This document shows, piece by piece, positions 13,268 through 25,684 of a stretch of DNA of 64,000 nt. The notes under the pieces were generated by a model. It saw only the letters and a program-made list of their open reading frames with translations, was not told the origin of the DNA and did not search any database. The position numbers were made by a program, and so were the translations under genes. Origin of the DNA: Escherichia coli (GTDB lineage: Bacteria > Pseudomonadota > Gammaproteobacteria > Enterobacterales > Enterobacteriaceae). The stretch's first letter is position 1. Each line of letters begins with the position of its first letter. The stretch lies in assembly GCF_001677475.2 (NCBI RefSeq), contig NZ_CP015229.1. One strand, 5' to 3'.

Positions 13268-13352
13268 ATTCGGGCGGATAAGGCGTTTTTGCCTCATCCG
13301 CCGTTCTGTGCACAATGCCTGATGCGACGCTGGCGCGTCTTATCATGCCTAC
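13268..13352. repeat. REP/BIME-type palindromic repeats downstream of proX
   Basis: Two palindromic units incl. gcctgatgcgacgctggcgcgtcttatcatgcctaca. Confidence 0.6.
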
Positions 13353-19299: not shown

Positions 19300-19309
19300 G
19301 GTTGTCAAA

Positions 19310-19331
19310 GGGAGCTGCGGCTCCCTTTTTA
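19310..19331 (+). terminator. Rho-independent terminator downstream of emrB
   Basis: gggagc-tgcg-gctccc stem followed by ttttt, directly after the emrB stop. Confidence 0.6.
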
Positions 19332-19556
19332 TTTGCTCATTCTGCAAACGGTTGTTTTATCCACTCATTCGGTGTATCTTTTCGCCGCCCCAAACTCTTC
19401 CATTCACCATTAACCGGTTCTGAGCATTCGCTCAGGTTGTTAATTCTCTTTTTCTTTCGCCCTCGCTTTCGCGGGTGATACTCACATTTTTCTTTTAACC
19501 CCATAACTCGCACCCTCGCGGGCGTACATTTATTACACACAAAATAATGGATTATT

Positions 19557-20264
19557 ATGAATACCCAACGAAAATACGGGAGAACCTGGCATTACCCTTT
19601 CTCCCCAGGCACCACCAGCGATGACCGTATTAACACCGATTACTGGCAGGATTTACAGGCCATCACGCAATTGGTGCACACAGAAAAACTCGACGGTGAA
19701 AATAACTGCCTTAACCGCTACGGCGTGTTTGCCCGTTCCCATGCCGCGCCTACGCAGTCGGCATGGACCTATAAAATTCGCCAACGCTGGCAACTGCTGA
19801 AAAACGATCTCGGCGATCTGGAGTTGTTTGGTGAAAATCTTTATGCCGTCCATTCGATTGAATATCGCGCCCTGGAGCAGGATTTTTATCTGTTTGCCGT
19901 TCGCTGCCAGGATATGTGGCTGAGCTGGGAAGAGGTGCAGTTTTACGCCGCTCTGTTTGATTTCCCCTGCGTTCCCGAAATCTCCGGCCCGCAGCCGGGG
20001 AATGATGAAAAAAGCTGGCAACGTGATTTTCTGGCGCTGACCAATGCGCGCGGCGCGTTCGATCCCTGGGATACGCAAACCGGGCAACCCTGTACGCTGG
20101 AAGGCATTGTCAGCCGAAATCGTGACGCGTTTTCCGTCGCTGACTTTTCGCATAACGTCTTCAAGTATGTGCGCAAAAATCATGTCAAAACCACCGTGCA
20201 CTGGAAACGACACTGGCAACGGGCGCGGATGGCCCATGAGTTCGCTTATGGAGAACAGTCATGA
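19557..20264 (+). CDS. Minimal ATP-dependent polynucleotide ligase (lysine nucleotidyltransferase family, RNA-ligase-like)
   Basis: 235-aa ORF; motif I K44-L-D-G47, motif III-like F91-G-E-N, motif IV E182-G-I-V, motif V K203-Y-V-R-K207 in canonical order. Confidence 0.7.
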
Positions 20265-21373
20265 TTTGGCAGCTTACCGACGACAAACGCTGGTCGACGC
20301 TACGCCAGCGTTTCAGTTGGGTTGAGGAGATGCATCACACGCCACAAGACCCGGAGCATCATGGTGAAGGTGACGTCGGCGTGCATACGGAAATGGTGCT
20401 TAACGCCCTCGTTACTCAGCCAGAATTCCAGCAACTCCCCGCTCAACAGCAGGAAGTTTTATGGGCGGCGGCGTTATTGCATGATGTTGAAAAGCGCAGC
20501 ACTACCGTGCAGGAAAACGGACGTATTCAGTCTCCAGGCCATGCTCGTCGGGGCGAACTGACGGCCCGACAAATTTTATGGCGCGATATCCCAACGCCGT
20601 TCGTGCTACGCGAGCAAATTGTTGCGCTGGTGCGTCTGCATGGGTTACCGCTATGGTTACTGGAACGTCCGGAACCGGAGCGTTTGCTGCTCACGGCTGC
20701 AATGCGCATCGACACGCGTCTGCTCGCTTTGCTTGCTCGTGCCGACCTGCTTGGTCGCCAAAGCCCGGATCAGCAATCAATGCTGGAACGCATCGATCTG
20801 TTCGAGCTGTTTTGCCATGAGCAACAATGCTGGGGAAAAGTGCGCCCGTTCGTTTCTGATTCCGCACGCTGGCACTACCTGACTCATGAGCAAAGTTCTC
20901 CTGATTTTGTTCCCTGGGGGGCTGAACCTTTTGAGGTTATTTTGCTGTGTGGCTTACCGGGTATGGGCAAAGATCGCTATATCAGTGAACAGTGCCAGGG
21001 AATGGACGTTATCAGCCTTGATGATATGCGGCGGCGAATCAATGCCAGCCCGGACGACAAAACCGCCACCGGGCGTATTGTGCAACAGGCAAAAGAAGAG
21101 GCGCGCGTTTTTTTACGCCAGAAAAAGCCGTTCATCTGGAATGCAACGAACATTACCCGCCAGCTGCGTAGCCAGCTCATCAGCTTGTTTACGGCCTACG
21201 GTGCAAGGGTAAAAATTATCTATCTGGAAGTGCCGTGGGCACAATGGAAGCAGCAAAATGCCAGGCGTGTGTATGCAGTTCCTGAAGTGGTCGTAATGCG
21301 GATGGCCTCAAGGCTGGAAGTTCCTCAACCTGATGAAGCACATAGCGTGGAGTATCGGGTGATTGAAAGGTAA
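20261..21373 (+). CDS. HD-domain phosphoesterase fused to a T4-Pnk-like 5'-OH polynucleotide kinase (HD-Pnk end-healing enzyme)
   Basis: 370-aa ORF; N-terminal HD signature ([11 protein letters not shown] ... LLHDVEK); C-terminal P-loop GLPGMGKD then [24 protein letters not shown] and [16 protein letters not shown], matching T4 Pnk as recalled; start overlaps the ligase stop (ATGA). Confidence 0.7.
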
Positions 21374-21379
21374 AAAAAC

Positions 21380-21416
21380 CGGGCGGTGCTGTCACCTGCC
21401 CGGCTTCTTTTGTTCC
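21380..21416. terminator. Probable bidirectional terminator between the HD-Pnk gene and convergent luxS
   Basis: A-run, ccgggcgg...cctgcccgg imperfect hairpin, then cttcttttgtt, in the 48-bp gap between two convergent stops. Confidence 0.5.
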
Positions 21417-22005: not shown

Positions 22006-22079
22006 GAAAGACGCGCATTTGTTATCATCATCCCTGAATTCAGAGATGAAATTTTGGCCACTCACGAGTGGCCTTTTTC
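22006..22079 (+). ncRNA. micA: MicA (SraD) small regulatory RNA
   Basis: Recognised sequence gaaagacgcgcatttgttatcatcatccctgaattcagagatgaaattttggccactcacgagtggcctttttc with terminal hairpin; between luxS and gshA on the opposite strand. Confidence 0.75.
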
Positions 22080-24917: not shown

Positions 24918-24994
24918 TGGTGCATCCGGGAGGATTCGAACCTCCGACCGCTCGGTTCGTAGCCGAGTACTCTATCCAGCTGAGCTACGGATGC
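24918..24994 (-). tRNA. argQ: tRNA-Arg (ACG), copy 1
   Basis: Reverse complement gives a 77-nt tRNA ending in CCA with recognised tRNA-Arg sequence; symbol assigned by position. Confidence 0.9.
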
Positions 24995-25096
24995 ATCGGG
25001 AAAACTTATTTTACTGCTGATATTGATACCGCTACTAAAGCCATATCAAATAAGAAAATCCATCTTAACCATCATCACTGATGATTACGGAGAATA

Positions 25097-25173
25097 TGGT
25101 GCATCCGGGAGGATTCGAACCTCCGACCGCTCGGTTCGTAGCCGAGTACTCTATCCAGCTGAGCTACGGATGC
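25097..25173 (-). tRNA. argZ: tRNA-Arg (ACG), copy 2
   Basis: Identical 77-nt repeat. Confidence 0.9.
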
Positions 25174-25235
25174 ATCGGGAAATTTATTTTACTGCTGATA
25201 TTGATACCGCTACTAAAGCCATATCAAGTAAGAGA

Positions 25236-25312
25236 TGGTGCATCCGGGAGGATTCGAACCTCCGACCGCTCGGTTCGTAGCCGAGTACTCTATCCAGCTG
25301 AGCTACGGATGC
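25236..25312 (-). tRNA. argY: tRNA-Arg (ACG), copy 3
   Basis: Identical 77-nt repeat. Confidence 0.9.
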
Positions 25313-25374
25313 ATCGGGAAACTTACTTTACTGCAGATTTTTTGATACCGCTACTAAAGCCGTATCAAGTAAGA

Positions 25375-25395
25375 GATGGTGCATCCGGGAGGATT
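25375..25395 (-). pseudogene. Truncated tRNA-Arg fragment (3'-terminal ~21 nt only)
   Basis: gatggtgcatccgggaggatt matches the 3' end of the tRNA-Arg repeat, then diverges into spacer-like sequence. Confidence 0.6.
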
Positions 25396-25511
25396 ACTCG
25401 CCTTGCGGCTCGCCCTTCGGGCCGTTGCTAAAGCAACGTTATCCTTCCTGGTGCTTGCGGCTAGTACCGCCACCTCTTCCACATCTTCATCGCTGAAGAT
25501 TACGGATAATA

Positions 25512-25588
25512 TGGTGCATCCGGGAGGATTCGAACCTCCGACCGCTCGGTTCGTAGCCGAGTACTCTATCCAGCTGAGCTACGGATGC
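25512..25588 (-). tRNA. argV: tRNA-Arg (ACG), copy 4
   Basis: Identical 77-nt repeat. Confidence 0.9.
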
Positions 25589-25591
25589 AAA

Positions 25592-25684
25592 TGGCGGTGA
25601 GGCGGGGATTCGAACCCCGGATGCAGCTTTTGACCGCATACTCCCTTAGCAGGGGAGCGCCTTCAGCCTCTCGGCCACCTCACC
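25592..25684 (-). tRNA. serV: tRNA-Ser (GCU)
   Basis: 93-nt long-variable-arm tRNA; reverse complement matches the tRNA-Ser(GCU) sequence as recalled. Confidence 0.88.

Follow-up and report, generated by a model that had tools for sequence, protein, structure and literature searches.

A predicted HD-Pnk end-healing enzyme and its coupled RNA-ligase-type partner between emrB and luxS of Escherichia coli

What is encoded by the pair of overlapping genes that separates emrB from luxS in some strains of Escherichia coli? The question is raised by a stretch of 64,000 nucleotides (nt) of the E. coli assembly GCF_001677475.2 (contig NZ_CP015229.1), which was analysed as a whole and is called the window here. 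On its plus strand, an uninterrupted open reading frame (ORF2, 20261-21373; ATG at 20261, TAA at 21371-21373) encodes 370 amino acids (aa), and ORF1 lies directly upstream. RefSeq names the ORF2 product 'ATP-binding protein' or 'AAA family ATPase' and its neighbour 'RNA ligase family protein'. A preliminary description made from the sequence alone had proposed that ORF2 fuses an HD phosphoesterase to a kinase like the T4 polynucleotide kinase (Pnk), in the manner of the HD-Pnk class. We conclude that ORF2 is very probably the E. coli orthologue of HD-Pnk, an enzyme that heals ends by two activities and would form a self-contained heal-and-seal cassette with the coupled ligase ORF1. The assignment of ORF2 rests on its homology and fold, on catalytic residues that are conserved, on its linkage to ORF1 in an operon, and on selection and distribution, and it corrects a present annotation that is uninformative.

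The family to which ORF2 belongs is readily identified. A chance reading frame is excluded by 3700 representative homologues at E ≤ 1e-3, including 550 at E ≤ 1e-30, and the opposite strand in the ORF2 register is rich in stop codons. ORF2 and the HD-Pnk of Runella slithyformis share 52% identity and 66% similarity over the full length, with one single-residue gap (E = 8e-138), and the family membership of ORF2 is therefore settled. The more distant DR_B0098 of Deinococcus radiodurans aligned with 99% of the ORF2 length in tblastn (E = 3e-17) and showed 28% identity in BLASTP (E = 3e-31). Because ORF2 is collinear with both proteins, the proposed class and its domain order, HD N-terminal and kinase C-terminal, were borne out. 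The peptide blocks quoted in the preliminary description were all found, at aa 32-42, 72-78 (LLHDVEK), 231-238 (GLPGMGKD), 250-260, 291-306 and 318-348. General model collections were less specific: NCBIfam gave sub-threshold partial matches to ORF2 and no equivalog model covering it, the PADLOC defence models held no family matching ORF1 or ORF2 at E ≤ 0.01, and the PHROGs matches were to generic polynucleotide-kinase and RNA-ligase families only.

The C-terminal half of ORF2 (aa 222-370; 20924-21373 on the plus strand, including the stop codon) is a predicted P-loop 5′-OH polynucleotide kinase domain. Pfam AAA_33 matched aa 226-355 with an E-value of 3.5e-30. When ORF2 alone was searched against solved structures, the Clostridium thermocellum and T4 Pnk were found at E = 3e-4 and 0.03, and a profile built from 65 homologues found them at 1e-15 and 2e-10, along with Capnocytophaga Pnkp1 and mammalian PNKP. 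In the AlphaFold model of ORF2 (predicted local distance difference test score, 97), this half matches the same C. thermocellum and T4 kinases. The T4 Pnk sequence blocks given in the preliminary description proved correct, and a phmmer alignment to PDB 1ly1 places them as claimed. In this alignment, K237 of the P-loop GLPGMGK237-D238, D254 (21020-21022), R257 and R336 of the lid Q332-N-x-x-R336 correspond to T4 K15, D35, R38 and R126; the kinase half also carries an N294-A-T-N motif. The Asp thought to activate the 5′-OH is thus present, D254 being the candidate general base, and K237, D254, R257 and R336 are each conserved in at least 97% of the 65 homologues.

ORF2 departs from T4 Pnk at two positions, where S16 and R122 of T4 are replaced by Asp238 and Gln332. 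Neither change marks this copy as defective: the residue after the P-loop Lys is Asp in 55 of the 65 family members, position 332 is held by Gln about as often as by Arg, and the Runella enzyme, which is active, has both substitutions. Since the unusual GKD P-loop and QNxxR lid recur in the Runella HD-Pnk, the substitutions are compatible with activity.

The N-terminal half (about aa 1-210; 20261-20890, plus strand) is a predicted all-helical HD phosphoesterase domain. It holds an H...HD...H...H...D metal-ligand set in an HD fold, with H42, H74-D75 (20480-20485), H94, H127 and D162 as candidate ligands. These residues, together with Q29, H34, E36, K78 and G98, are invariant in the 65 homologues, which reach down to 30% identity. 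The homologue profile matched 3wfo, a class II tRNA nucleotidyltransferase, in its C-terminal region with an E-value of 8.5e-11, and the N-terminal half of the AlphaFold model matches HD-domain proteins. The weak partial matches in NCBIfam were to the HD region of a CCA addition/repair protein and to HDIG. The invariant ligands, the profile match to 3wfo and the modelled fold all agree with the earlier proposal of an HD phosphohydrolase at this end of the protein.

ORF1 (19557-20264, plus strand; 235 aa) is predicted to be a stand-alone, ATP-dependent RNA-ligase-type adenylyltransferase of the LigB or 'LIG' family, and it matched Pfam PF09414 with an E-value of 4.4e-28. It carries the covalent nucleotidyltransferase motifs I (KxDG; here TEK44LDGEN, with K44 at 19686-19688), III (FGEN), IIIa, IV (EGIV) and V (FKYVRK) in an adenylyltransferase fold. 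These motifs, as well as an N-terminal signature KYxRTxHxPxSPGxxxDD, vary little or not at all among 28 homologues. The nearest folds are those of Rnl2, Rnl5, Rnl3 and the RNA-editing ligase, with DNA ligases ranking behind, and ORF1 consists of the adenylyltransferase domain alone, with neither an OB nor a DNA-binding domain. The ORF1 family profile had no significant sequence match among solved structures. The phmmer matches of ORF1 to mollusc hemocyanins (E = 3e-9), as well as PDB matches to hemocyanin and picornavirus VP2, were judged spurious because they sum many weak repeats and no single stretch is significant. They arise from aa 78-166, a W-x-x-W-Q/E-rich segment resembling YxxxS(L/I)xYxxxDxxFxLxxxxxxxxWxxWQExQ.

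Do the two genes work as a unit? The ORF1 stop and the ORF2 start overlap in the sequence ATGA (20261-20264), which suggests translational coupling. A GGAG ribosome-binding site for ORF2, read from the sequence, lies inside the 3′ end of ORF1 (20250-20253, plus strand), 7 nt before the ORF2 start. The ORF1-ORF2 cassette is under purifying selection: among E. coli alleles, the ratio of nonsynonymous to synonymous substitution rates (dN/dS) was 0.10-0.12 for ORF2 and 0.02-0.07 for ORF1. For other species, one genome per species was scanned; 411 species had a close relative, and 80 loci, Runella not among them, were kept. In 79 of these 80 loci the ligase gene lies directly upstream of the HD-Pnk gene on the same strand, and in most related loci its end abuts or overlaps the HD-Pnk start. 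Because the wider neighbourhoods vary, the conserved unit is the two genes.

Named homologues occur in Enterobacterales, Bacteroidota, Cyanobacteria, Actinomycetota, Alpha-, Beta- and Gammaproteobacteria, Bacillus and Deinococcus. The enterobacterial HD-Pnk proteins are 52-58% identical to those of Bacteroidota (52-69% when HD-Pnk and ligase proteins are taken together; loci L016-L083), whereas ORF2 is about 34-37% identical to its homologues in Pseudomonas, Ralstonia and Variovorax. This difference hints at an ancient transfer linking Bacteroidota and Enterobacterales. A phage origin was considered and rejected: the sole full-length phage homologue is in an uncultured 462-kb phage (LR756500.1, 24519-25559; 34% identity, 94% coverage), and the remaining phage matches span the kinase domain alone.

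Within E. coli, ORF2 was found in 999 of 5426 complete genomes (1000 with a wider query), full length, in single copy and always on the chromosome. K-12 has 63 bp between the emrB and luxS stops, and in the window about 2.1 kb takes the place of this spacer; homology to K-12 returns precisely at the emrB stop on one side and 7 nt ahead of the luxS stop on the other. The same emrB-luxS position is occupied in Klebsiella spallanzanii (L065) and Enterobacter sp. BIGb0383 (L073), the HD-Pnk proteins of which are 77% and 71% identical to ORF2, respectively. Because three genera carry the cassette there, it is of long standing at this site, and its loss has probably occurred more than once. A search for mobility signatures found no flanking direct or inverted repeats, no mobility genes and no match on E. 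coli plasmids, and the GC content of the cassette equals that of its flanks. One E. coli variant of the protein (P0001; 417 aa, NCBI) carries 47 aa twice in tandem at the linker between the HD and kinase domains, the repeated segment beginning ARADLLGRQ.

The borders of the cassette are marked by intrinsic terminators. The emrB terminator (19307-19328, plus strand) has a stem of 9 bp with a T run behind it (-15.7 kcal/mol, z = -3.3) and sets the cassette apart from the upstream efflux operon; its hairpin is kept in K. spallanzanii by a compensatory change from GGGAGC/GCTCCC to GGGATC/GATCCC. At the other end, a GC-rich hairpin set between an A7 run and a T-rich run (21379-21403) forms a bidirectional terminator for ORF2 on the plus strand and the convergent luxS on the minus strand, with folding energies of -19.4 kcal/mol (z = -2.6) and -25.8 kcal/mol (z = -5.1) on the two strands, respectively. 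About 120 nt upstream of ORF1, in the leader or promoter region of the cassette, is a conserved 28-nt block of the form TAACCGGTTCTGAGC-N4-GCTCAGGTT (19411-19438, plus strand). It contains the inverted repeat CTGAGC-N4-6-GCTCAG (19420-19435) and was flagged as terminator-like by the terminator scan. The arms do not vary between E. coli, K. spallanzanii and Enterobacter sp., and the loop between them measures 4 to 6 nt. The block may be a regulatory site, either an operator or a hairpin in the 5′ untranslated region, and its sequence departs from both the LexA and the sigma-54 consensus. Neither a sigma-54 promoter nor a LexA box was found upstream of the cassette.

The surrounding genes are emrA and emrB upstream and luxS, MicA, gshA, yqaA, yqaB and a transfer RNA (tRNA) cluster downstream. 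Rfam placed the small RNA MicA between luxS and gshA (22006-22077), five tRNAs at 24921-25684 on the minus strand, and naRNA4 (CssrE) at 13272-13349. The positions of MicA and the tRNAs agree with the emrB-luxS-gshA-yqaAB region of E. coli, and the core genes around the cassette reach 99.2% identity to E. coli genomes.

How, then, might the two proteins act? The HD, kinase and sealing activities of the E. coli proteins are inferred by analogy. The HD domain, with a transition metal bound by H42, H74/D75, H94, H127 and D162, would convert 2′,3′-cyclic-phosphate, 3′-phosphate and 2′-phosphate ends to hydroxyls. The kinase domain would transfer the gamma-phosphate of a nucleoside triphosphate to a 5′-OH end by means of K237, D254, R257 and R336. 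ORF1, charged with adenosine monophosphate (AMP) at K44, would then seal the healed ends.

Several observations weigh against this scheme. Concerning the kinase, the best match of the domain profile in PDB was not a polynucleotide kinase but PSTK, a tRNA-specific kinase (1.5e-17). The domain could accordingly be imagined to act on a specific tRNA-linked or small-molecule substrate, in the way of PSTK, gluconate kinase or zeta toxin, with the HD domain hydrolysing a nucleotide or second messenger; we consider this highly improbable. Concerning the HD domain, the Pfam HD model was not significant for the single ORF2 sequence (E = 0.021), and in the first study of DR_B0098 the substitutions H81A and D82E left the 3′-phosphatase signal unchanged, so that the activity was not attributable to the HD motif (PMC1997131). 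Both points would be expected if the domain were catalytically silent, serving as a scaffold, a nucleic-acid-binding module or a regulatory element, and ORF2 were effectively a kinase alone. However, seven candidate metal ligands are invariant across the homologues, as in an active site, and the authors of the Deinococcus study blamed the mutant result on contaminating E. coli phosphatase (PMC1997131). In addition, the closely related Runella HD-Pnk is reported to have both kinase and 2′,3′-phosphoesterase activities (Munir & Shuman 2017, as cited in PMC6097658). A silent HD domain is thus very hard to sustain, and a bifunctional HD-Pnk remains our preferred reading.

Concerning the cassette as a whole, strict and loose scans found no sigma-70 promoter for it, and the HD-Pnk gene has decayed in some lineages. 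In O145 RM9872 (L089, 1501-2613) this gene is annotated as a pseudogene: codon 219, which falls between its HD and kinase domains, is a stop, while the ligase is intact. Several large clusters of shortened proteins from E. coli (P0027, 288 aa; P0036, 262 aa; P0053, 252 aa) suggest that such decay recurs in some lineages. Since the cassette is absent from some 82% of the complete genomes of E. coli, one could suppose that the copy in the window is itself a decaying remnant without function. This is scarcely credible for the present strain, because ORF1 and ORF2 are both intact, dN/dS is about 0.1 or lower, and neither the ribosome-binding site, the ATGA coupling nor either terminator has been lost. 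The site shared with Klebsiella and Enterobacter likewise argues for long-term retention of the cassette.

The weakest link of the predicted mechanism is the sealing step by ORF1. The LIG protein of Runella and LigB of Deinococcus both formed a ligase-AMP, but they sealed no tested substrate with 3′-OH and 5′-PO4 ends (PMC6097658; PMC5397189). This result also counts against the heal-and-seal reading, in its last step.

Which nucleic acid the cassette serves is a separate question that concerns its physiological role only. The cassette could mainly repair DNA breaks with 3′-phosphate and 5′-OH ends, of oxidative or radiation origin, rather than RNA. DNA as the natural substrate is favoured by the Deinococcus phenotype: the DR_B0100-0098 operon is radiation-induced, DR_B0098 is needed for resistance, its loss sensitising cells to ionising radiation, and DNA repair is the proposed role of the operon (Schmier & Shuman 2018, as cited in PMC6300522; PMC5397189). 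The Runella enzyme, moreover, carries the words DNA/RNA end-healing in the title by which PMC6097658 cites it. On the other hand, ORF1 falls in an RNA-ligase Pfam family, has RNA ligases as its nearest folds and is devoid of OB and DNA-binding domains; the HD domain most resembles tRNA CCA-repair enzymes; the LexA search upstream was negative; and the Runella cluster contains an RNA enzyme, Tpt1. RNA as the natural substrate is favoured by the family and fold of the ligase, by the resemblance of the HD domain to CCA-repair enzymes and by Tpt1 as a neighbour in Runella, and we regard a role mainly in DNA repair as possible but rather unlikely.

If RNA is the substrate, a more specific role can be imagined. 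E. coli has a core Tpt1 homologue, KptA, and the cassette might supply the missing first part of an RNA repair route resembling that of yeast, in which HD-Pnk heals, the ligase seals a special end such as one with a 2′-phosphate, and KptA removes the 2′-phosphate. We put this forward as a speculation that we consider improbable. It is an equally doubtful guess that, in such a route, HD-Pnk would act on tRNA or messenger RNA ends made by metal-independent ribonucleases, for example tRNA-cleaving colicins, anticodon nucleases or toxin ribonucleases. If the route were true, it would give a physiological substrate to the 'orphan' ligase and to bacterial Tpt1/KptA, and the cassette would be a strain-specific protection against RNA-targeting toxins.

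HD-Pnk with its ligase is a known but poorly understood repair module, whose healing chemistry was established in two non-model bacteria. An intact orthologue under selection, which occupies one fixed place on the chromosome and is carried by about 18% of complete E. coli genomes, opens this module to tractable genetics. Natural controls exist within the species, namely strains with an empty site (K-12) and pseudogene strains (O145 RM9872).

How does the E. coli pair compare with known repair systems? T4 Pnkp has an N-terminal kinase and a C-terminal 3′-phosphatase of the DxDxT (HAD) type, whereas the HD domain of ORF2 is unrelated to that phosphatase and N-terminal. The match of ORF2 to the T4 structure is confined to the kinase (1ltq residues 4-138), and nothing lies C-terminal of the ORF2 kinase. 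In C. thermocellum Pnkp, a single polypeptide runs from kinase through a binuclear metallophosphoesterase to ligase and has a Hen1 methyltransferase partner. The E. coli pair, in contrast, has an HD phosphoesterase, a separate small ligase and no Hen1. Compared with class II CCA-adding and repair enzymes (E. coli Cca and the group of PDB 3wfo), the HD domain of ORF2 is without the nucleotidyltransferase head and is fused to a kinase.

The Deinococcus system is closer. The H81/D82 pair of DR_B0098 corresponds to H74/D75 of ORF2 in a collinear protein of equal domain order, and the first gene of the operon, DR_B0100/LigB, encodes a protein 36% identical to ORF1, in which K40 corresponds to K44. 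The 5′-kinase activity of DR_B0098 has been demonstrated, and the R371K substitution weakens it (PMC1997131). DR_B0098 differs from ORF2 in its length of 413 aa, its canonical GKS P-loop and its RxxxR lid. The megaplasmid operon is annotated as DR_B0100 (RNA ligase family), DR_B0099 (PARG-like) and DR_B0098; thus a PARG/macro-domain gene lies between ligase and HD-Pnk in a radiation-induced megaplasmid operon, and E. coli has nothing of the kind.

The closest counterpart is that of Runella. Its locus was reached from E. coli KptA through PDB 7kw8 (Runella Tpt1) and a protein cluster to contig CP002859.1. There, Tpt1 is followed by a methyltransferase-HIT fusion and, after some 150 nt of spacer, by a PF09414 ligase overlapping a 368-aa AAA_33 protein; this layout agrees with the four-gene cluster described in PMC6097658. 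Its flanks (L091, 6859-8016 and 11582-13729) hold an HNH_4-domain gene overlapping the Tpt1 start and, downstream, a RecQ-family helicase. In other Spirosomaceae, neither Tpt1 nor the methyltransferase-HIT gene was found near HD-Pnk in the Larkinella and Dyadobacter loci; in Larkinella the genes upstream include those for a PcrA/UvrD helicase and YbeY. The Runella and E. coli pairs differ in their surroundings, as Tpt1 and the methyltransferase-HIT fusion precede the former and emrB and luxS flank the latter. Their proteins are alike in size (368 and 370 aa), in the order of HD and Pnk, and in the GKD P-loop, D-x-x-R motif and QNxxR lid. The PF09414 ligase LIG is 57% identical to ORF1, and in both loci the end of the ligase gene overlaps the start of the HD-Pnk gene. 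The HD-Pnk class has already been described, and the E. coli protein adds a member to this known family rather than a new system.

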